Assembly (NCBI GenBank): GCA_001004905.1
Contig: LCRY01000002.1
Span: 269,873-333,872, forward strand
DNA: 64,000 nt
Direction: 5' to 3'
From: Parcubacteria group bacterium GW2011_GWA1_56_13
Lineage (GTDB): Bacteria > Patescibacteriota > Minisyncoccia > Phycocordibacterales > Phycocordibacteraceae
The notes beneath the pieces are model-generated. The model was not told where the DNA came from. It did no database searches and was given only the letters and a program-made list of their open reading frames with translations. Shown here one piece after another: positions 1,492 through 38,854 of this stretch. The translations under genes were made by a program, and so were the position numbers. The number at the start of each line of letters is the position of its first letter. Position 1 is the stretch's first letter.

Positions 1492-2592
1492 CTAGAGCCC
1501 TTCGGATTTGAGGTCGTCAACAACCTTGCGGGCTTTGCCGGAGAGCTTCTGCGGAAGCGCGACTTCAAGCCGGATGATAAGGTCGCCCCGGCCGCCTTCA
1601 AGCGGTATTCCCTTTCCTCCCACCCGCAGCAGCTCCTCCGCGCGTTTCATCGGCGGTATCTTCACCTCGAGCGCCTTTCCCTCCAGGGTTTCGATGGAGA
1701 CGGTAGTGCCGAGAAGCGCGTCGGTGAGCTTTACCGGCAAGCTCATAACGAGATTCCCCCCGTCACGACGGAATTGCGGATGCGGCTTCACGTGTATCTT
1801 GACGTACAGGTCGCCCGCAATACCGGTCTTGACCGCCTCCCCCTTCCCCTGCATGCGTATCATTTCCCCGTTATCAATGCCGGAAGGAATGCGAATGTGC
1901 ACTTCTTCCTGCTTGCGCCGTGTGCCATGGCCTCTGCATTCGGGACATTTCTCCTTCGGTATCTTCCCGCTGCCCTCGCAGGCGGAACAGACGCGGACGG
2001 TAGTGAATTGCCCGAGAATGGAATTGCGCGTCTCGTGGACGCGGCCACTGCCGTTGCAGGTGGAACACTTCTCAAGCTCGGTACCCGGCTTCGCTCCCGA
2101 GCCGCGGCAAAGGTCGCAGGTGGAAACTTTTGCGATGAGGACGTTCCGGGTCGTGCCGAAGATAGCGTCCTTGAACGCTATTTCGAGGTCAATAGAAATG
2201 TCGCGTCCCCGGGGAGTCTGCTGACGCGCGGCCCTGCCGGAGAATATGTCGCCGAAGATATCGCCGAAATCTCCGCCGAATGCGGGTCCGCCTTCGGTGG
2301 AGAATTCAAAATTACCGTTCCGGAACATGTCATTGAAATCAAATCCGCCGAATGGATTGCCACCCGCAGGTCCTGAACCCCCGGCGAACGCTTGGCCGTA
2401 CGCGTCGTACTCACGACGCTTTTTGTCGTCGCTTAAGACCGAATAGGCCTCGGTAATTTCTTTGAACTTCGCTTCGTCGGTGCCCCCCTTATCGGGATGG
2501 TATTTATGCGCGAGCTTCCGGAAGGCCTTTTTGATATCCTCCTTGGTGGCCTTCCGGTCCACCCCGAGCACGTTGTAATAGTCCTTGGTCAT
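1492..2592 (-). CDS. dnaJ: molecular chaperone DnaJ
   Basis: J-domain with HPD motif (YHPDKG), Gly-rich linker, four CxxCxGxG zinc-finger repeats, C-terminal domains. Confidence 0.97.
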
Positions 2593-4493
2593 GGTTTTTC
2601 TTTAAATTCCGCGTCGGTCGGACCGGAAGATTCGGGGGGAGGATTCTGCGTCCCTCCTGCGTCGGGACCTGCGGCTGCACCTCCGGTCTGCTGCGCTTTC
2701 ATGACCGCTTCGCCTATCTTCATCATTGCCTGCGAAAGGTTGTCGGTCGCGGTTTTGATGGTCGCGGGGTCCTCGCTGTTGCGAGCGGTCTTGAGGGCGT
2801 CTATCTTGTCCTGCACTTCCTTCACTATCTCGGCCCCTACTTTTTCACCGTTGTCTTTTATCGCCTTCTCGGCGGCATACACGGCCTGGTCGGCGACATT
2901 GCGCGCCTCGACAAGCTCCTTGCGCTTCGCGTCGTCGGAGGCATGCGCCTCGGCATCGGCCGCCATCTTCTCGATGTCGGTCTTCGAGAGGCCCGTGGAG
3001 CCCTCGATGCGGATACTCTGCTCTTTGCCGGTCGTCTTTTCCTTCGCCTTCACCGTGAGGATACCGGAGGCGTCCACATCGAACGTCACTTCGATCTGCG
3101 GCATGCCGCGCGGGGACGGCGGGATGCCGTCGAGCATGAATTTGCCGAGCGACTTGTTGTCGGCGCTCATCGCGCGCTCGCCCTGCGTGATATGGATCTC
3201 GACCGACGGCTGGTTGTCGGCGGCGGTAGAAAATACCTGCGAGCGGCTGGTCGGGATGGCCGTGTTGCGCTCAATGAGCTTGGTCGCCACGCCGCCCATC
3301 GTCTCGATCGCGAGCGACAGCGGGATAACATCAACGAGCAGGATGTCTTTTACGTCGCCCTGCAGGATGCCCGCCTGGATGGCCGCGCCCACCGCAACAA
3401 CCTCGTCGGGATTAACGCTCATGTTCGGCTTCTTGCCGAAGAATTTTTCGACTTCCGCCTGGAGCTTCGGCATGCGGGTCTGGCCGCCGACCAGGATAAC
3501 CTCATTGATATCGGCCACCGTAAACGGCGACGCGTCCATCGCGCGCTTGGTGATGCTCATTGCGCGCTCGATGAATTCCGCAGCAAGGTCTTCGAGCTTC
3601 GCGCGTGTCATCTTGATGAGCATGTGCCGCGGGCCGGAGGCGTCCGAGGTGAGGAACGGGATATTTATCTCGGTCTCCATCGCGCTTGAAAGTTCTATCT
3701 TCGCCTTCTCGGCGGCCTCGTCGAGCCGCTGGCGCGCGAGCGCATCGCCACGCACATCGATGCCGCTCTCTTTTTTGAATTCGTCGGCAAGCCAGTTGAT
3801 TATCTTCTGGTCGATATCCTTGCCGCCCAGGTGCGCGTCGCCGTCGGTACTCTTCACCTCAATGACATCGCCGCCTACATCGAGTACCGAAATGTCGAAT
3901 GTTCCGCCGCCGAAGTCGAAGACCGCTATTTTCTCGTCTTTTTTCTTGTTGAAACCGTATGCAAGCGCGGCCGCCGTCGGCTCGTTGATGATGCGCTTCA
4001 CTTCAAGCCCGGCGATCTGCCCCGCGGCCTTGGTCGCGCTGCGCTGGTCGTCATTGAAGTACGCGGGGACGGTAATAACGGCTTCGGTTATCTTTTCGCC
4101 CAGCCTCGCTTCGGCGTCGGCTTTGAACTTGCCGAGTATCATCGCGGATATCTCTTCCGGCCGGTACCACTTATCCGTCATCTTGACCTCAATGCCGCCA
4201 TTGTCCGCTTTGCGCATTTCGAACGGCACGGCCGCCTTGTCTTTCTGCGCTGCAGGTTCGTCAAAGGAGTGGCCGATGAAGCGCTTGATCTGGAATATGG
4301 TGTTGAGCGGGTTCGTGACCGACTGACGCTTGGCAAGGGTGCCGACGATCCTCTCGCCGGTCTTCCCCACCGCCACAATGGACGGGGTGGTACGGGCGCC
4401 TTCGGCGTTCTCGAGCACGCGTGGCTCGCCGCCTTCGACGATAGCCATCGCGGAATTGGTCGTGCCTAGATCTATACCGAGAATTTTTGCCAT
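2589..4493 (-). CDS. dnaK: molecular chaperone DnaK (Hsp70)
   Basis: [22 protein letters not shown]..., full Hsp70 ATPase and substrate-binding domains. 4-nt overlap with dnaJ. Confidence 0.98.
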
Positions 4494-28100: not shown

Positions 28101-30941
28101 TTACGCTACGAGATTAACGATTCTGCCCGGCACATACACGACGCGGGAAGGGGTCTTCCCCGCCAAAGCGGCTGCGACGGCTGGAAGTTTCAAAGCTTCA
28201 GCCAACGCGTCAGCTTCGCCGGCCTCGTTCGGTAACCGAATGCTGCCTCGCTTGCGGCCGGCGACTTGTACAACGACTTCCGCCGTATCCGAAACGAGGT
28301 GCGCCGGATCGTATGCGGGCCAGGACGCAAGGTGGATGGAATACGGTTCGCCAAGCCGCTCCCAGAGTTCCTCGGTGATGTGCGGTGCAAATGGCGCCAA
28401 GAGCCGTAAAAACGCGCTCCACTGTTCATGACCGATCTTCCCCTCCTTCTCGACCGCGTTGAGGAAAATCATCGCCTGACTCACCGCCGTATTGAATTTG
28501 AACGTTTCGATATCTTCCCCTATCTTCTTGATGGTTTGGTGGACAAGCGGGTCGAGTGCCGCAACCGGAGCATCAACGACGAGTTCCTGCCCGGCCCACA
28601 GCCGTTCGAGGAAGCGGGCCGTACCCGCGATAGAGGCCATGCTCCATGCCGTCGTGTTCTCGAACGGACCCATGAACATCTCGTAGGCACGGAATGCGTC
28701 GGCGCCGTACTGTGCGACGACGTCGTCAGGATTGATGACGTTCCCGAGCCGCTTGCTCATTTTGCGTCCGTCTTCGGCGAGGATGAAGCCGAGGAATTCG
28801 AGGCGCGCGAACGGCTCGCTAGTGCTCACGACTGCGATGTCGTACAAAAATTTGTGCCAGAAACGCGCGTAGATGAGATGGCGTACGGCGTGGTCGCCGC
28901 CCACATAGACGTCCACCGGCGCCCAATGCTTTTCATTCTTGGCAGAGACCAATTCGTGGTCGTTATGCGGGTCCATGAACCGGAGGTAATACCAGGAGGA
29001 GCCCGCCCACTGCGGCATGGTGTTCGTTTCTCGTGTCGCGGGACCGCCGCATTTTGGGCAAGACGTGTTGACCCAATCATGTATCGCCGCGAGCGGTGAT
29101 TCGCCCGTCCCGGTCGGTTCATACTGGTCGACGTCGGGAAGCTGTACCGGCAGATCTTCATAGGGGACCGCGACAGCGCCATCCTTCTCGCAGTGGATGA
29201 TGGGGATCGGTTCGCCCCAGTAGCGCTGGCGGGAGAACACCCAGTCGCGAAGTTTGTACCGCACGACTTTTTTCCCGCCTACCGCTCCGGTCATTTCCCA
29301 CTTCGCCTCATCGCTGTTCCTGCCGGTATACTCGCCGGAATTAACGAGCGATCCGGTTCCGGTATACGGAGCCGGCCCGTTCTGCAAAAGACGCAACGAG
29401 TGTTGATGCGTCTCCGGCGTGAGGAATTTCGCAAGCTTGTCGGGCGTAAGCCACAATAATTCGTGCTTTGCTCCTTCTTCGGGTACCACGTCTTCCCGAG
29501 CGTCATCGGCAAGCTCGACGGAAAATATATGTGCATGGACGAGCTGATTTTTCTGTTTCGGCACGTGATAGAAAAGCCCGTCCACGACCCCGAGTTTCCC
29601 CGCGATCCTCGCGTGCAGATAGCCCGTTTCTTCACGGATTTCTTTCAGCACGGTTTCTTCGGGGGTCATTCCCTCTTCGACACCGCCGGTAAGAAATGTA
29701 CCCCAGGTGACATCCTTCCATTTGAGCCCGAGATATTTCTTCTCCTTCCAGTGCCGAATGATGGCGATAACGCCATTCTTTTCCAGGATCGGTTCGCCGG
29801 GACGATAGACGCCCGGCTGCGTCGTCTGAGTGTATCGCTGCGCGATGACCTGCCGGATAGGAAGATCCATCGCGCGTGCAAATTCGAAATCGCGCTCGTC
29901 GTGCGCGGGCACGGCCATGATGGCACCCGTGCCGTATGAGCCAAGCACGTAGTCGGCGACGTATATCGGTATTTCCTCCTTGGTCGCCGGATTCGTCGCC
30001 GTGACGCCTTCAAGCTTCACGCCGGTCTTTTTTTTCCCTTCCGCGCCGCGTTCTATCTCCGTTTTTGCCTCGGCGGCTTTGATATACGCCTCAACTTCCC
30101 TTGTATTCGCGATGCGTTCAAGGAGCGCTTGTCCCGTGGGGCCCTGGCGGAGCAGCGGATGCTCGGGCGCGAGTACGAGGTAGGTCGCGCCGAAGATCGT
30201 GTCCGGACGGGTGGTGAAAACCGTCACGGATCCGTCACCTACCACAAACGGTATCTCCGCGCCTTCGGAGCGGCCGATCCAATTGCGCTGCGCCTCCTTG
30301 ATGTGTTCGGGCCAATTGAGCGCGTTCAGGTCATCGAGCATGCGGTCGGCGTACTCGGTGATCTTGAGCACCCACTGCGGCAGGCGCTTCTTGATCACCG
30401 GCGTTCCGCAGCGCTCGCACACGTTCCCGTCAAGGTCTTCGTTGGCGAGTCCGGTCATGCACGACGGACACCAGTTAATGGGCTCGTCCGACTGGTACGC
30501 GAGTCCTTGCTCGAACAGTTTCAGGAATATCCACTGGGTCCATTTGTAATAGGCGGGGTCCGTCGTGTTTATTTCCCGCGTCCAGTCGTAATCGAAGCCG
30601 AGATGCGCAAGCTGCGCCTTGAAGCGGGCGATGTTCTGTTCGACGGCTTGGCGCGGGTGCGTTTTATTCTTGAGAGCGAAGTTCTCCGCGGGCAGGCCGA
30701 ACGCGTCCCAGCCCATGGGATGCAACACCGAGAATCCCTGCATGCGCTTTTTGCGCGAGAAGACGTCGGTTGCGATATATCCCTTCGGATGGCCAACATG
30801 CAGTCCTTCGCCCGACGGATACGGGAACATGTCGAGAACGTACACCTTCTCTTTCTCCGCGTCTTCGTTCGTGCGATAGAGGCCGTCCCGCTCCCAGCGT
30901 TCCTGCCACTTCTTCTCAATAGATGAACGGTCGTAGGCCAT
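28101..30941 (-). CDS. leuS: leucine--tRNA ligase with an inserted NUDIX-like domain
   Basis: HVGHP, editing domain, KMSKR. About 160 extra residues (aa ~368-528) contain a Nudix-box-like GGVEEGMTPEETVLKEIREETGY. Confidence 0.95.
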   Translation of the reverse strand: MAYDRSSIEKKWQERWERDGLYRTNEDAEKEKVYVLDMFPYPSGEGLHVGHPKGYIATDVFSRKKRMQGFSVLHPMGWDAFGLPAENFALKNKTHPRQAVEQNIARFKAQLAHLGFDYDWTREINTTDPAYYKWTQWIFLKLFEQGLAYQSDEPINWCPSCMTGLANEDLDGNVCERCGTPVIKKRLPQWVLKITEYADRMLDDLNALNWPEHIKEAQRNWIGRSEGAEIPFVVGDGSVTVFTTRPDTIFGATYLVLAPEHPLLRQGPTGQALLERIANTREVEAYIKAAEAKTEIERGAEGKKKTGVKLEGVTATNPATKEEIPIYVADYVLGSYGTGAIMAVPAHDERDFEFARAMDLPIRQVIAQRYTQTTQPGVYRPGEPILEKNGVIAIIRHWKEKKYLGLKWKDVTWGTFLTGGVEEGMTPEETVLKEIREETGYLHARIAGKLGVVDGLFYHVPKQKNQLVHAHIFSVELADDAREDVVPEEGAKHELLWLTPDKLAKFLTPETHQHSLRLLQNGPAPYTGTGSLVNSGEYTGRNSDEAKWEMTGAVGGKKVVRYKLRDWVFSRQRYWGEPIPIIHCEKDGAVAVPYEDLPVQLPDVDQYEPTGTGESPLAAIHDWVNTSCPKCGGPATRETNTMPQWAGSSWYYLRFMDPHNDHELVSAKNEKHWAPVDVYVGGDHAVRHLIYARFWHKFLYDIAVVSTSEPFARLEFLGFILAEDGRKMSKRLGNVINPDDVVAQYGADAFRAYEMFMGPFENTTAWSMASIAGTARFLERLWAGQELVVDAPVAALDPLVHQTIKKIGEDIETFKFNTAVSQAMIFLNAVEKEGKIGHEQWSAFLRLLAPFAPHITEELWERLGEPYSIHLASWPAYDPAHLVSDTAEVVVQVAGRKRGSIRLPNEAGEADALAEALKLPAVAAALAGKTPSRVVYVPGRIVNLVA
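29358..29840 (-). other. NUDIX-hydrolase-like domain inserted in LeuRS between the editing domain and the re-entry to the catalytic core
   Basis: Alignment from memory to E. coli LeuRS around ...VPGHDQRDYEFA...IKPVI...GVLFNSGEFNG... shows ~160 inserted residues; the Nudix box resembles MutT GGKIEMGETPEQAVVRELQEEVGI. Confidence 0.6.
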
Positions 30942-35187: not shown

Positions 35188-35583
35188 AACGGCCTGCGTG
35201 CAGAATTTACAGCGCTTTGCGGTGATAGGTATCTCGCTTAGGCACTCCTGGCATTTTTTGGTCGTTGGGTCCGCCGGAGGCCCTTTATGCGAATGGGAAA
35301 TAAGCAGGTTTATCGGTTTTACGATAAAAAAGAAGACGGTTGTGGCGATGAGCAGGAAGGAAATGAGCGCGTTGAGGAAATGTCCGTAGAGGAACTTGCT
35401 GCCATTCACCGTGAAAGAGAGGTCGCTAAAATCAGGGACCATGGCGATAGCCGCGATGAGTGGGGTGATGAAGTCCGAGACGAGCGCCGTCACCACCGCT
35501 CCGAAAGCCGCGCCGATCACGACGCCAACGGCGAGGTCGATCACGTTCCCGCGCAATAGGAATTGTTTCAGTTCTTTCAGCAT
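35182..35583 (-). CDS. mscL: large-conductance mechanosensitive channel MscL with a C-terminal Cys4 zinc-ribbon tail
   Basis: MLKELKQFLLRGNVIDLAVGVVIGAAFG...; C-terminus KKCQEC...RCKFC. Confidence 0.9.
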   Translation of the reverse strand: MLKELKQFLLRGNVIDLAVGVVIGAAFGAVVTALVSDFITPLIAAIAMVPDFSDLSFTVNGSKFLYGHFLNALISFLLIATTVFFFIVKPINLLISHSHKGPPADPTTKKCQECLSEIPITAKRCKFCTQAVP

Positions 35584-35622
35584 GGGGAAAGTATACCAGG
35601 ACCGATCCGTTCACTGAATTTG

Positions 35623-35695
35623 TGGACCCGAGGGGAATCGAACCCCTTGCCTCGTGCATGCCATGCACGCGCTCTACCAAGTGAGCTACGGGCCC
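35623..35695 (-). tRNA. tRNA-Ala (anticodon GGC)
   Basis: Manual cloverleaf: acceptor GGGCCCG with the G3:U70 Ala identity pair; anticodon loop ATGGCAT. Confidence 0.85.
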
Positions 35696-36381
35696 TTTTT
35701 ACTAAAACTCGTCATCACCTGTTGGGCTATTCGTTTCAGTTCCAAATCAACGGCCGAAGAGAAATAATCGATGCGGCATACTCCTTTGTACTCTCTCTTC
35801 TCAGAGACTCGTCCCAAAGTCCGTTTATCGACCCGCGCTCCGTAGAACTGACTAAGAGGAATTCTCGTTGTTTCTGACCAGAACTTTTCAAGTTTTTTGA
35901 TATCCTGGTCGGCCCTACACTGCAGGGTGCAGCGGAACTTTCGTTCGTCTAATTTGTAGCATTCTCTCATTAAGTTTACAAACATAAGCACTATCGCTGG
36001 ATCAGAATTGCCGAACATCAGCGAGCCACGAGATGATTTGGACCCTTCGGCGAGATAAAGGACGGCTAAGACAATCTTTCTTGTGCGATTGTCTGCGGCA
36101 AAAACATGGAGTAAATCCTTATTTTGCGCGTCCAAACTTTCAAAGAAGGCTTGTTGGCGCTCTTTTCTCTTTCTGGAGGAGATCTCCTGGGCTTTGGCGA
36201 AGTTCAACTTGTTCAGCTTTTGTACCTTAACGTGATAACTTCTCGGCAAAGTGATATTCCGGCACCAGTAACTCAATGTGCTCTTGGGAATGTCAATCTT
36301 CAGAAGCCTCTTGATTTCAGAGTACGTCTTGCCTTTCCGACGAAGCTGCGCCGCTCGTTCTTGCGATGATACCGGCAACAT
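35686..36381 (-). CDS. low-GC ORF with an N-terminal HTH and a LAGLIDADG-like motif (LAVLYLAEGS); putative homing-endonuclease-like protein; the stop overlaps the tRNA-Ala(GGC) 5' end by ~10 nt
   Basis: Motif comparison with LAGLIDADG (LAGLIDADGS); local GC ~45% versus ~60% background. Confidence 0.4.
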   Translation of the reverse strand: MLPVSSQERAAQLRRKGKTYSEIKRLLKIDIPKSTLSYWCRNITLPRSYHVKVQKLNKLNFAKAQEISSRKRKERQQAFFESLDAQNKDLLHVFAADNRTRKIVLAVLYLAEGSKSSRGSLMFGNSDPAIVLMFVNLMRECYKLDERKFRCTLQCRADQDIKKLEKFWSETTRIPLSQFYGARVDKRTLGRVSEKREYKGVCRIDYFSSAVDLELKRIAQQVMTSFSKKGP

Positions 36382-36436
36382 GGGAATATTGTACCCCTAA
36401 TACCTCCATCGGCACTTGCGCACCGTGTACAATTTG

Positions 36437-36474
36437 TGGACCGTAGCGGATTTGAACCGCTGACCTCGTCAATG
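36437..36474 (-). repeat. tRNA-Ala 3'-half fragment (anticodon-stem 3' strand, variable loop, T-arm, acceptor 3' strand)
   Basis: CATTGACGAGGTCAGCGGTTCAAATCCGCTACGGTCCA; pairs with the 5' half at 36593..36623, including G3:U70. Confidence 0.7.
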
Positions 36475-36499
36475 TTCACCCCGTTAGATATCTCTTCGG

Positions 36500-36572
36500 T
36501 GGACCTGGGGGGATTTGAACCCCCTACCTCGTCAATGCGAATGACGCGCTCTACCAATTGAGCTACAGGCCC
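36500..36572 (-). tRNA. tRNA-Ala (anticodon CGC), flanked by 12-bp inverted repeats and nested between two halves of another tRNA-Ala
   Basis: Cloverleaf: GGGCCTG...G3:U70; anticodon loop TTCGCAT. Flanks ccccgttagata (36479..36490) and tatctaacgggg (36577..36588). Confidence 0.85.
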
Positions 36573-36592
36573 ATATTATCTAACGGGGCGCG

Positions 36593-36623
36593 TGACGCGC
36601 TCTACCAGCTGAGCTAACGGCCC
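36593..36623 (-). repeat. tRNA-Ala 5'-half fragment (acceptor 5' strand, D-arm, anticodon-stem 5' strand)
   Basis: GGGCCGTTAGCTCAGCTGGTAGAGCGCGTCA. Confidence 0.7.
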
Positions 36624-36744
36624 AAACATGAACAGAACGGACTGGCGGGCAGGCAGGTAAGGATAACGCGCTCTACTGCAAGAAGCGAGGCGAAATAAAA
36701 TTCGATTTATTTCTGCCGAGCGCCGCAGCAGAAAGCCCGCAGGG

Positions 36745-36767
36745 CTTACCAGCTGAGCTAACGGCCC
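36745..36767 (-). repeat. second copy of the tRNA-Ala 5' fragment (GGGCCGTTAGCTCAGCTGGTAAG)
   Basis: 21-nt identity with the 5' half at 36593..36623. Confidence 0.6.
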
Positions 36768-36821
36768 GTGCGAAACATGCTAACACGCTCGAATATTATT
36801 TTCATCGGGCCACCGGGAATC

Positions 36822-36908
36822 GGTCACGGATAATTTTCTCGCCGTCGCTCGAAAATTTCCTCGACCCCGTCTCGCCGTTCGGCTTGCTAGCCGAACAGTG
36901 CTCCGACT
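36822..36908. repeat. ~88-nt structured direct repeat R1 (tRNA-linked)
   Basis: ~90% identical to R2 at 37233..37320; internal hairpin gttcggc-tagcaa-gccgaac. Confidence 0.7.
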
Positions 36909-36919
36909 TTCGATTCCTT

Positions 36920-36990
36920 TCGGGCTACCGGGAATCGAACCCGGACTGCATGACCCCCAGCCACGCGTACTACCACTATACGATAGCCCG
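36920..36990 (-). tRNA. tRNA-Pro (anticodon GGG)
   Basis: Cloverleaf: CGGGCTA (C1:G72), anticodon loop CTGGGGG, T-arm CCGGG-TTCGATT-CCCGG. Confidence 0.7.
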
Positions 36991-37142
36991 TTTTCGGAGA
37001 TGTTCTGTGTCGGGCCGCCGGAAATTGGTCACGCAGAATCCCGTGCTCGGGATTTGCGCGACCCCGCCTCGCGCCGTCGCGCTCCGGCCTTCAATTCCCG
37101 ACGACATGGCGCCCTCTTCGGGAGGTGTTCTCTGTCGGGCCG

Positions 37143-37213
37143 CCGGGAATTGAACCCGGTCTACACGCACCCGAAGCGTGCGTACTACCGGCATACTCCG
37201 GCCCGACACAGAA
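37143..37213 (-). tRNA. tRNA-Pro (anticodon CGG)
   Basis: Cloverleaf: CGGGCCG (C1:G72), anticodon stem CACGC/GCGTG, loop TTCGGGT. Confidence 0.8.
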
Positions 37214-37232
37214 CACCTCCTTGTGGTCACGG

Positions 37233-37320
37233 ATAATTTTCTCGCCGTCGCTCGAAAATTTCCGCGACCCCGCCTCGCGGTTCGGCCTACTGACCGAACA
37301 TCGCTCCGGCTCGCACAAGG
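37233..37320. repeat. ~88-nt structured direct repeat R2
   Basis: See R1. Preceded (minus sense) by a 15-bp perfect hairpin caaggggcacgagaa-gcatgt-ttctcgtgcccttg directly after tRNA-Val. Confidence 0.7.
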
Positions 37321-37350
37321 GCACGAGAAACATGCTTCTCGTGCCCCTTG

Positions 37351-37424
37351 TGCGCTCTGGAGGATTCGAACCTCCGACCTTTCGCGTGTGAAGCGAACGC
37401 TCTAACCAACTGAGCTAAGAGCGC
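37351..37424 (-). tRNA. tRNA-Val (anticodon CAC)
   Basis: Cloverleaf: GCGCTCT..., anticodon loop TTCACAC. Confidence 0.85.
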
Positions 37425-37577
37425 GATGCACGGCTTACCTTAGCAAGAAAAAGAAGCTCCTACAAATCACATGTACCCGCGAGGAGCGCGAAAAATATGA
37501 GTAAGGGAGTCCTGGTGCGCATGGCCATTGTGCGGCGCTTCATGATAGCAAAGAGGCCGTTTGTTATACTCCCTGCC

Positions 37578-38009
37578 ATGAACACAAACGCATGGGCGGT
37601 TCTCACCGTGCTGATTATCCTGGTCGGTCTCGGGATTTGGATCATCGCGCCGCAAATCGCCGGGCAGCCGGGCGGCCCCTCCGCTACGACAACGGCGACC
37701 GGCACGAGCACTTCCCCTACTTCGGCCGATAACGCGCCACCGGGGAGCATCCATAACCTGCCGGTGCCACAGGCGGTTTCCGCAGCGCGCGCTTACGCCG
37801 CCCGAGCGCTCGGCGTCTCCGAAGGGCTCGTCATCGTCATGACCGCGTATGAGAAAGAGTGGACGGATAGCTGTTTGGGCCTTGGCGGGCCGGCCGAGTC
37901 CTGCGCGCAGGTCATCACGCCGGGTTACGAGGTCACCGTTCAGGCGAACGGAAAACAGTACATGTACCGCACGAACGCGACCGGCGAAGTTATCCGTCAG
38001 GCAAAATAA
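37578..38009 (+). CDS. small secreted/membrane-anchored hypothetical protein; start at MNTNAWAV
   Basis: N-terminal TM helix; a TATACT -10 box lies 7 nt upstream of the ATG (leaderless-like). Confidence 0.45.
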   Translation: MNTNAWAVLTVLIILVGLGIWIIAPQIAGQPGGPSATTTATGTSTSPTSADNAPPGSIHNLPVPQAVSAARAYAARALGVSEGLVIVMTAYEKEWTDSCLGLGGPAESCAQVITPGYEVTVQANGKQYMYRTNATGEVIRQAK

Positions 38010-38016
38010 ACTTCAG

Positions 38017-38112
38017 TGGACCCGACCGGACTTGAACCGGTGACCCCTTCATTGCAAATGAGATGCTCTACAGCAAGGAGAGAGGCCGAAGGACTTACCA
38101 GCTGAGCTGGGG
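38017..38112 (-). pseudogene. decayed tRNA-Ala(TGC)-like copy with an insertion after the D-loop and no intact acceptor 5' strand
   Basis: ...GCTCAGCTGGTAAG-[27-nt insertion]-GTAGAGCATCTCATTTGCAATGAAGGGGTCACCGGTTCAAGTCCGGTCGGGTCCA. Confidence 0.55.
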
Positions 38113-38126
38113 ATTCAAAACTTGGG

Positions 38127-38199
38127 TGGACCTGACCGGTTTCGAACCGGTTACCTCCTCATTGCAAATGAGGCGCTCTACCAATTGAGCTACAGGCCC
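38127..38199 (-). tRNA. tRNA-Ala (anticodon TGC)
   Basis: Cloverleaf: GGGCCTG..G3:U70, anticodon loop TTTGCAA. Confidence 0.85.
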
Positions 38200-38260
38200 A
38201 CCCAAGTTTTCAATCTTATTTCTTGATCCTACAATATCATTTTCGGCCGATTATTTGAAG

Positions 38261-38854
38261 CTAATTCTTTCGGCTGATAAAATTGAGGTAATTTTTAGAA
38301 CGGGGCTTAAATTGCTCGAAGTACACGACGGAAAAACCGTGTTCGCGCAGCAGGTCCTCAACCTCTTTTTTTCGATAATAGCTAAACCAGCGCGGCAAAT
38401 GCACTCCTGAACTCTCCTTGTACTGCTCGACGTCACCCTCTATAAGCCCCAATCCGAACGTCCCTCCTTTCACGAGAACACGGGCCACCTCCGAGAGAGC
38501 CGCGCCAACGTTTGCCTTCGGCACATGCAATAAGGTGGTATACGACCACACGCCCCCGAAGCTTTCGCTCGGGAACGGCAGTACGCTGAAATCGCCCAGC
38601 ATGGAATTGAGACCTCTGGACGCTGACAAAGCGACCATCGCCTCGGAGGCGTCAAGACAAACGATGTCCAATCCTTTCTCTTTCAGAATAAGGCCGTCCC
38701 GCCCGGGGCCGCTTCCCACATCCAGCACCCGTCCGTTCGTCATGCGAGCGAACGTGTCTATAACCGTCCGCGGGAACAAATCCCAAAAGCCGGCGGTCTC
38801 GGCGTCATAGGCAAGTGCAGTGCGGTTATAGGTGTCGATCGTAACCTTATCCAT
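38261..38854 (-). CDS. class I SAM-dependent methyltransferase
   Basis: Motif I: VLDVGSGPGRD. Confidence 0.8.
   Translation of the reverse strand: MDKVTIDTYNRTALAYDAETAGFWDLFPRTVIDTFARMTNGRVLDVGSGPGRDGLILKEKGLDIVCLDASEAMVALSASRGLNSMLGDFSVLPFPSESFGGVWSYTTLLHVPKANVGAALSEVARVLVKGGTFGLGLIEGDVEQYKESSGVHLPRWFSYYRKKEVEDLLREHGFSVVYFEQFKPRSKNYLNFISRKN

Follow-up and report, generated by a model that had tools for sequence, protein, structure and literature searches.

We examined a stretch of 64,000 nucleotides from contig LCRY01000002.1 of Parcubacteria group bacterium GW2011_GWA1_56_13 (hereafter, the window), which contains a minus-strand cluster of tRNA genes headed by tRNA-Val(CAC) and continuing with tRNA-Pro(CGG), tRNA-Pro(GGG), tRNA-Ala(CGC) and tRNA-Ala(GGC) (Table 1). 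A sequence-only reading had described partial tRNA copies, two repeats of ~88 nt and a hairpin among these genes as traces of recombination. All features listed in that reading were present on the minus strand, with small shifts in their coordinates. The ~88-nt repeats are copies of a ~105-nt structured non-coding element of many Candidate Phyla Radiation (CPR)/Patescibacteria genomes. A third, degenerate copy of the repeat, a split outer tRNA-Ala and antisense partners of the tRNA-Pro fragments were found in addition to what had been described.

Table 1. Features of the tRNA cluster and its surroundings, in window coordinates.
Feature	Position	Strand	Basis or remark
tRNA-Ala(GGC)	35622–35695	minus	ARAGORN and Rfam
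231-aa open reading frame (ORF)	35686–36381	minus	Stop codon overlaps 5′ end of tRNA-Ala(GGC)
3′ half of split outer tRNA-Ala(CGC)	36437–36473	minus	
119-nt insert in anticodon loop of outer tRNA-Ala(CGC)	36474–36592	minus	Inner tRNA-Ala(CGC) within inverted repeat CCCCGTTAGAT / ATCTAACGGGG
Inner tRNA-Ala(CGC), intact	36498–36572	minus	ARAGORN and Rfam
Leader/trailer inverted repeat of inner tRNA-Ala(CGC)	36573–36592 / 36474–36497		
A2, 5′ half (positions 1–31) of split outer tRNA-Ala(CGC)	36593–36623	minus	Pairs with 36437–36473
A1, 5′ part of resident tRNA-Ala(CGC), native position	36661–36767	minus	Sequence; 21-nt exact repeat
Tail of copy a, 18 nt	36805–36822	minus	Direct copy of tRNA-Pro(GGG) C56–A73, 1 mismatch
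Element copy a, intact	36812–36917	minus	R1, 113 bits, E 8e-25
tRNA-Pro(GGG)	36920–36990	minus	ARAGORN and Rfam
Tail of copy b, 32 nt	36996–37027	minus	90.6% identical to 37121–37152
Element copy b, degenerate	37017–37098	minus	R1, 48 bits, E 2e-9
Leader/trailer inverted repeat of tRNA-Pro(CGG), 16 bp	37206–37221 / 37119–37133		Flanks also in L062 and L093
tRNA-Pro(CGG)	37134–37205	minus	ARAGORN and Rfam
Element copy c, intact	37215–37320	minus	R1, 117 bits, E 7e-26
Hairpin after tRNA-Val, stem ~18 bp with one bulged G	37312–37354	minus	Sequence
tRNA-Val(CAC), head of cluster	37350–37424	minus	ARAGORN and Rfam
Decayed copy of tRNA-Ala(TGC), positions 8–76	38017–38108	minus	83% identical to intact gene
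Leader/trailer inverted repeat of tRNA-Ala(TGC)	38201–38215 / 38112–38126		
tRNA-Ala(TGC), intact	38123–38200	minus	ARAGORN and Rfam

The covariance model R1, which was built from the element family, was run on the whole window and detected exactly three copies, all within this tRNA cluster. In copy b, hairpin 1 is gone and hairpin 2 is shortened. The two repeats described earlier as ~90% identical (36822–36905 and 37225–37308) share 89.3% identity over 84 nt. The identity between copies a and c (88%) was not above that between copy c and elements in other genomes, and this comparison was uninformative as to whether copy a is a recent duplicate of copy c. The closing helix of the element (P1) is formed by CCTTGTG/CACAAGG in copy c and by GGAATCG/CGATTCC in copy a. 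The sequence CACAAGG also occurs immediately 3′ of tRNA-Val, which gives a 7-nt direct repeat. The hairpin after tRNA-Val, described earlier with a perfect 15-bp stem, was confirmed, with a stem of ~18 bp and one bulged G. This hairpin begins in the last 4 nt of the tRNA, and its 3′ arm, CCTTGTG, doubles as the 5′ strand of P1 of copy c. The same architecture with another sequence occurs in the strain L007 and in the relatives L062 and L093.

The fold was determined from a structure alignment of 82 distinct element copies. The consensus is a three-way junction of ~105 nt on the tRNA-sense strand, which consists of P1, an arm with a CG(G)AG/CGAG internal loop at its base and a variable hairpin at its tip, and a long hairpin of the form GGTCGCGG-AAATTTN-CGAG-C-GACG-G-CGAG-N'AAATT(A)T-CCGTGACC. 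Standard pairs occupied 89% of the cells, compared with 36–50% when the partners were slid by 1–3 columns, and double-change cells numbered 578 against 84–162 in the slid controls. The covariation score was reached by none of 500 shuffles, and changes on both sides were observed in 27 of the 38 pairs. All six pairs of P1 covary, and its 5′ strand, which is antisense to the tail that follows the element, shifts with the tail from copy to copy. G·U pairs were observed at columns 61–97 in 67 of the 82 copies and at columns 63–95 in 23, and the invariant CGAG opposite CGAG corresponds to tandem G·A pairs. Compensatory pairs and strand-specific G·U pairs, the marks of a structured RNA, were thus both found. 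The covariation, the G·U pairs and the tandem G·A pairs are consistent with a single strand, most simply RNA, that folds in the tRNA-sense orientation, and not with a double-stranded palindrome. We also considered the units as tRNA-like genes derived from tRNA-Pro(CGG), with a 7-nt loop containing CGG; the covariation of the family assigns this stretch to another helix.

The distribution of the element was defined with the 22-nt pattern CGAGNGACGNCGAGNAAATTAT, taken from the hairpin with the highest conservation, in a scan of species-representative genomes, one for each species. The pattern matched at least 120 stretches. Among the matches listed, all titles were CPR/Patescibacteria-type metagenome-assembled genomes (MAGs) or plain "bacterium" records, and they included MAGs of Kaiser-, Lloyd-, Nomura-, Yonath-, Zambryski-, Taylor- and Adlerbacteria, Paceibacterota and similar groups. 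R1 detected 143 copies in 96 other loci. The core pattern CGAGNGACGNCGAGNAAATTAT gave no match in 2.9 million viral contigs. Searches of Rfam 15 with E values up to 10 returned only chance-level matches for units a, b and c, well below the gathering score and with E ≥0.12, and scans of 10 loci at the gathering threshold returned only tRNA, RNase P and LOOT RNA, elsewhere in the loci. The LOOT RNA (RF03000, 86 bits) lies at 1656–1775 (+) of L062, a Paceibacterota contig, and is unrelated to the elements. A description of the element was not found in the searchable literature on CPR tRNA introns, on structured RNAs or under the core string; a TIGR-Tas paper that surfaced in this search is unrelated. 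One sequence subclass of the element is tied to tRNA-Glu, and tandem arrays occur in L028, L082 and L113. An enlarged variant with ~90 nt of extra domain was observed in L044 (5509–5700), L031 (4310–4475), L095 (2390–2562), L027 and L088. The extra domain (..GGGTGAG..GCAAGAC..CCTGTAAGGA..) sits between CGAGNCGGGG and the long hairpin, and the variant in L044 gave no convincing Rfam match.

The positions of 139 R1 copies were analysed with an upstream limit of 200 nt. A same-strand tRNA gene lay 1–171 nt (mostly 20–80) upstream of 81 copies, another copy lay upstream of 25, and 6 were at a locus edge; the other 27 had neither a tRNA nor another copy within 200 nt upstream. An opposite-strand tRNA or copy was the nearest upstream feature within this limit in none of the 139. 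The upstream tRNAs span 16 amino-acid specificities, and the junctions Lys(ctt)-element-Leu(tag), Val(cac)-element-Pro(cgg) and Leu(gag)-element-His recur across lineages. The sequence-only reading had offered tRNA-linked structured RNAs as its alternative, and the repeats are indeed tRNA-linked structured elements across many CPR lineages. The conserved ..GTGAC is followed immediately by upstream tRNA sequence copied in direct orientation. An exact tRNA copy of 6–18 nt was present in the tail of 34 of the 71 tRNA-adjacent copies; these exact copies begin in the T-loop or T-arm, mostly at C56. Tail copies of at least 8 nt were observed in 30 of the 71, compared with 1 of 67 control pairings. 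The tail copy often stops at the tRNA 3′ end and sometimes extends 8–25 nt or more into the trailer. In a second class, to which copy c (CACAAGG) belongs, the repeats are only 5–7 nt long and sit at the extreme 3′ end of the tRNA.

CTGC is a frequent loop of the hairpin that separates the tRNA from the element (in many loci, for example L041, L047, L049 and L052). In AT-rich genomes, this hairpin resembles an intrinsic terminator. In L049, L111 and L042, the hairpin splits the antisense strand exactly between the part that pairs with the acceptor strand and the part that pairs with the T-stem strand. An antisense copy of the acceptor 3′ strand before the upstream hairpin, which would form a tRNA-like minihelix, matched exactly in 2 of 13 cases and is no general feature.

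In the window, the tail of copy b is a direct copy of tRNA-Pro(CGG) from C56 to the discriminator plus 14 nt of the trailer, and it serves as the 3′ strand in P1. Behind the tail of copy a lies the native spacer TGAAAA.., which matches the Pro(GGG)-Ala(CGC) spacer of L062. The 18-mer from the tRNA-Pro 3′ end gave 3 matches with ≤3 mismatches, compared with 0.14 expected. Each fragment pairs with an antisense segment across the repeat, and the DNA between the two copies of the tRNA segment is ~94–99 nt long in copies b and a. The "tRNA-Pro 3′ fragments" are the 3′ strand of the closing helix P1, and this pairing indicates that they are parts of the element junction and not random decay. Ordinary segmental duplication and decay of tRNA genes, with hairpins arising by chance, is contradicted for the Pro and Val features by the family-wide conservation, the covariation and the fixed C56 junction, and the matches of the tRNA fragments are far above the shuffle expectation. 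The pseudo-copy of tRNA-Ala(TGC) and the extra tRNA-Ala 5′ halves do look like such products, and this explanation is plausible for part of the Ala debris; as an account of the whole we give it hardly any credence.

Comparison with related loci revealed which copies differ between lineages. The order in L062 is Val-element-Pro(CGG)-18 nt-Pro(GGG)-37 nt-Ala(CGC)-30 nt-Ala(GGC). The Pro(CGG)-Pro(GGG) gap of 18–26 nt is element-free in L062 and L049, and the site of copy b is empty in both. L049 has no element among Val, Pro and Pro and has one behind Ala(CGC), and L013 has one element between the two Pro genes. Copies a and b are missing from relatives and thus differ between lineages, most simply as a result of insertion. 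The distal tRNA segment at copy a is followed by the L062-type spacer, which indicates that the distal copy is the native one. The att-like partial duplications postulated from the sequence are borne out by direct tRNA copies that start at C56 and by flanking DNA that relatives lack. Up to the T-arm of tRNA-Val, L007 matches the window at 99.5% identity; beyond it, L007 has a different allele of the same architecture, in which a hairpin precedes a homologous unit whose stem carries a compensatory change. Between L005 and the window, 12 of 1581 positions differ, and all of them lie in unit b and its 5′ spacer (37022–37116). The allele switch in L007 and the confinement of the L005 differences to unit b support the view of this cluster as a recombination hotspot. 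Element-free tRNA spacers keep the last 7–8 nt of the element (CCGTGGAC / CGTGACC) at 2256–2280 of L049 and 992–1042 of L013, and these remnants may be deletion footprints.

Large islands or prophages with integrase genes, if they had repeatedly entered and left tRNA genes, would also leave partial tRNA duplications as scars, and those in the window fall at the three classical sublocations, namely the T-loop, the 3′ end and the anticodon loop. This part of the sequence-only reading did not hold. The insert is an element of ~100–150 nt only, and the same covarying element of ~100 nt, not varied island remnants, lies between the duplicated segments in >100 genomes. The recommended search of the flanks gave no integrase or transposase within about 9 kb on either side, and the core is absent from the viral contigs. 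We therefore consider such scars very improbable.

On balance, we lean to the interpretation that the repeats are small non-coding insertion elements of tRNA genes. An element would insert into the T-loop or the 3′ end of the gene together with a substitute for the 3′ end; the tRNA would thereby stay intact, with the native 3′ end displaced downstream. The resulting layout would be the att-site geometry of tRNA-targeting integrative elements. Because the elements encode no recombinase, they would depend on a trans-acting host function or on homologous recombination via the conserved tRNA genes. No sigma-70-type promoter and no intrinsic terminator were predicted on the minus strand inside the cluster, from which we infer that the elements are probably co-transcribed with the tRNAs. 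RNase Z and RNase P would probably cut the transcribed element out of the tRNA cluster transcript as a stable folded RNA, and its conserved fold would be recognised by the mobilising or processing machinery.

Several points weigh against insertion. Simple integration does not account for the complementarity of the element 5′ side to the tRNA-derived tail. The core has 28 invariant columns, at a median pairwise identity of 72%, across tRNA types and lineages, and such conservation is to be expected of an RNA that serves the host at least as much as of a selfish insert. Folded single-stranded DNA may be the relevant form. The 5–7-nt flanking repeats of the 3′-end class were not clearly above chance. 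Recombinase, integrase, transposase and reverse transcriptase genes were not found within ~9 kb, no protein family was enriched within 3 kb of the elements (~115 loci), and the predicted empty sites of copies a and b were not found in metagenome contigs, which is an uninformative result. A neighbourhood search for a partner protein of the element gave housekeeping genes only.

The main rival, which we hold to be possible and rather doubtful, is that the element is a host-beneficial non-coding RNA, encoded in the spacers of tRNA operons and released by RNase Z/RNase P. Selection, together with gene conversion with the adjacent tRNA, would then maintain the tail and its antisense strand, and the differences between genomes would be losses. 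Such an RNA would explain the strong core conservation and the covariation across lineages, an orientation that is always that of the tRNA, the recurrence of the same junctions in different lineages and the subclass bound to tRNA-Glu. It is also consistent with the enlarged variant, since extra domains such as that of ~90 nt are common in functional RNAs, and with the finding of no cis-encoded mobility protein. It agrees less well with the different tRNAs that carry elements in related Kaiserbacteria/Paceibacterota clusters (the window compared with L062, L049 and L013). The duplication has a fixed boundary at C56 and a variable one at the other side, with the native flank at the distal copy only, and the tandem arrays, the decaying copy b and the short remnants resemble the turnover of inserts.

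A cis-acting switch of tRNA maturation was also considered. Here, the antisense strand would have two alternative partners, the T-arm/3′ end (or trailer) of the upstream tRNA and the downstream copy, and the two exclusive folds would control the processing or read-through of the tRNA cluster. Two structures suggest this: the CCTTGTG of copy c can close either the long hairpin abutting tRNA-Val or P1, and the minimum free energy (MFE) structure of the 651-nt cluster (z = −10) pairs the leader and 5′ acceptor strand of tRNA-Pro(CGG) with the distal copy and not with the proximal 3′ end. We judge it improbable, as there is no evidence of a ligand or protein trigger, 27 of the 139 copies have nothing suitable within 200 nt upstream (neither tRNA nor copy), and the conserved three-way-junction core is left unexplained.

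Insertion into tRNA genes is the reading that we favour for the Pro and Val features. With less than even confidence, we further propose a new CPR-confined class, either of RNA-structured tRNA-specific mobile elements or, equally, of abundant tRNA-operon RNAs, in which a sense tail and an antisense "guide-like" segment surround the core. Through the core, a trans-acting protein would act on the T-loop of the cognate tRNA gene or on the tRNA itself.

The tRNA-Ala debris was examined separately. The 21-nt tRNA-Ala 5′ end occurs twice as an exact copy (36603–36623 and 36747–36767), compared with 0.00 matches expected, which confirms the second 5′ end reported before. A1 ends after the 5′ strand of the anticodon stem and has an insert of ~69 nt in its D-loop. 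The acceptor halves of the outer tRNA-Ala(CGC) pair with each other, G3:U70 included, and this split gene is the orthologue of the uninterrupted tRNA-Ala(CGC) in L062 and L093. The inner tRNA-Ala(CGC), around which the inverted repeat forms 11–14 bp, is of another sequence type than the outer one, and its T-arm type resembles that of tRNA-Ala(CGC) in L049. The MFE fold of the outer and inner tRNA-Ala consists of nested cloverleaves (z = −4.3). A bulge-helix-bulge consists of two 3-nt bulges 4 bp apart at the exon–intron junctions, and the group I intron is the known intron type of bacterial tRNA genes. The outer junctions show no bulge-helix-bulge: 5 bases on one strand and 7 on the other are unpaired where the anticodon stem leads into the 11–14-bp helix, with no 4-bp helix among them, and Intron_gpI gave no match in 35400–38400. 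Together with the identical anticodon of the inner gene, these results indicate that the outer tRNA-Ala(CGC) is most simply a disrupted pseudogene.

The decayed tRNA-Ala(TGC) copy, reported earlier with an insertion at the D-loop, was located 18 nt downstream of the intact gene and has a 25-nt D-loop insert. The D-loop inserts at 36676–36746 (69 nt) and 38066–38093 (25 nt), both on the minus strand, occupy the same site, GGTA^AG..^TAGAGC, and have their first ~8 nt in common. Neither the D-loop inserts nor the nested-tRNA flanks nor the A1–A2 spacer had matches in the other loci examined, and they are therefore lineage-specific. We regard the tRNA-Ala debris as separate recombination products in the same hotspot, with an origin unlike that of the Pro and Val features.

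The 231-aa ORF beside tRNA-Ala(GGC) is absent from the corresponding L062 spacer between the two Ala genes. Its family has 899 or more homologues of ~225 aa and no Pfam domain. Members are encoded just upstream of a tRNA gene, and their stop codon abuts or overlaps the tRNA 5′ end. Homologues with >50% identity always have tRNA-Ala(GGC) as this neighbour, which was observed in four further loci, each of a different assembly, and paralogues with ~30% identity lie within ~90 nt upstream of, or overlap, same-strand tRNA-Val, Trp, Tyr and Gly genes. Family members were located at 3001–3675 of L129, 493–1164 of L130, 3001–3678 of L131 and 3001–3690 of L133, and further ones in L092, L023, L123, L030 and L020. 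The predicted structure, a confident model (predicted local distance difference test score, 92.7), combines a helix-turn-helix at the N terminus with a long helix and a C-terminal alpha/beta domain. The protein contains the motif LAVLYLAEGSK, and its matches among viral structures to homing endonucleases and intein-bearing proteins were weak (E ≥0.08). LAGLIDADG homing endonucleases are marked by a helix with a metal-binding acidic residue and an alpha-beta-beta-alpha-beta-beta-alpha fold. The motif and the alpha/beta domain hint at a link to them, against which stand Pfam (no match), solved structures (no fold match to this family) and profile comparison with I-CreI (probability, 0.2%). The family may be a candidate homing-endonuclease-like selfish gene.

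ARAGORN with intron options found no extra or intron-containing tRNAs. Leader/trailer inverted repeats of 11–16 bp surround tRNA-Pro(CGG), tRNA-Ala(TGC) and the inner tRNA-Ala(CGC) and would lengthen the acceptor stem of the precursors. The gene content of the window (bacterial leucyl-tRNA synthetase, YchF, MscL and a DUF5671 protein) is of the CPR/Patescibacteria type, and its proteins recur with identical sequence in the Candidatus Kaiserbacteria MAG GCA_003531405.1 and in several metagenome assemblies. The leucyl-tRNA synthetase (946 aa, 28101–30941, minus strand) has a NUDIX domain (residues ~392–514) inserted after the editing domain. Assemblies of the same population end or have N-gaps in the tRNA cluster (L001 at ~9300 and L005 at ~9750), and the contigs of L003, L004, L006, L007 and L008 end in the same cluster. 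The seeming deletions in L001 and L005 are scaffold N-gaps and no real variants. The join at 37131–37135 rests on the window's own contig, because none of the fetched assemblies spans it.

CPR/Patescibacteria genomes are ~1 Mb in size and have few recognised mobile elements or regulatory RNAs. The element recurs behind tRNA genes of 16 specificities in >100 species-level genomes. At ~105 nt and with 28 positions that never vary, it must be important, whether for the cell or for its own propagation. As a mobile element, it would be exceptionally small among insertion elements that target tRNA genes and would move with no enzyme of its own; as a processed RNA, it would be a non-coding product of tRNA operons that defines the lineage. 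Under both readings, it accounts for assembly breaks and gaps at the tRNA clusters of these genomes, and R1 is ready for use in genome annotation.

The element can be compared with several known systems. MALAT1-mascRNA is a comparison case of a dicistronic gene of a tRNA and a non-coding RNA (ncRNA). Like such genes, the element is a structured ncRNA candidate just 3′ of a same-strand tRNA that could be released by tRNA-processing enzymes; unlike them, it has no box C/D or other known motif and carries a copy of the tRNA 3′ end together with its antisense. Plant dicistronic tRNA-snoRNA genes are processed by RNase Z, according to the references given in PMC12045711. Split and intron-containing tRNA genes of archaea include the split tRNAs of Nanoarchaeum and genes with bulge-helix-bulge introns (PMC4390854, PMC4090602). 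The outer tRNA-Ala resembles these in its two halves and in the flanks that form an 11–14-bp helix extending the anticodon stem, and it differs in its bacterial host, in the lack of a bulge-helix-bulge and in an "intron" that is a complete tRNA-Ala(CGC) of the same anticodon.

Integrative mobile elements exploiting Xer (IMEX) lack a recombinase and use the host XerCD, and the substrate in the case of the CTX phage is a folded single-stranded attP. The element likewise has no recombinase of its own, and recognition could act on a folded single strand that contains mismatches. It differs from IMEX in that its target is a tRNA gene and not dif, that no dif-like site was recognised and that it is ~100 nt long compared with kilobases. 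Small non-autonomous repeats of bacteria include miniature inverted-repeat transposable elements (MITEs), Correia/CREE, REP/BIME and RUP. The element is, like these, short, multi-copy, intergenic, hairpin-forming, assembly-breaking and variably present between strains. In contrast to MITE-type repeats, its terminal inverted repeat derives from the target tRNA and not from the element, the duplication ranges from ~5 to >44 nt, the core is kept across many CPR lineages, and the position and strand relative to the tRNA are strict. A classical MITE or insertion sequence-derived element is ruled out, because the strands of P1 follow the tRNA and the length of the duplication varies.

Williams reportedly distinguished, in 2002, T-loop, anticodon-loop and 3′-end sublocations for the tRNA-targeting islands and prophages with tyrosine integrases. 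As in these integrative elements, the element is flanked by a copy of the tRNA 3′ segment that starts in the T-loop (18 nt in copy a, 32 nt in copy b, and present in 34 of the 71 tRNA-adjacent copies), the tRNA is intact, and the native end and flank are distal. Unlike them, the whole element is only ~100–150 nt long and encodes no integrase or other protein, the insert of ~100 nt thus lacking the gene that these elements carry; its interior is an RNA-like three-way junction, its left side is antisense to the duplication, and no viral contigs contain it. The element is accordingly closest to an insertion element of the tRNA-targeting type that has an RNA-like module of ~100 nt in place of an integrase, with a substantial chance that it represents a new class of RNA.

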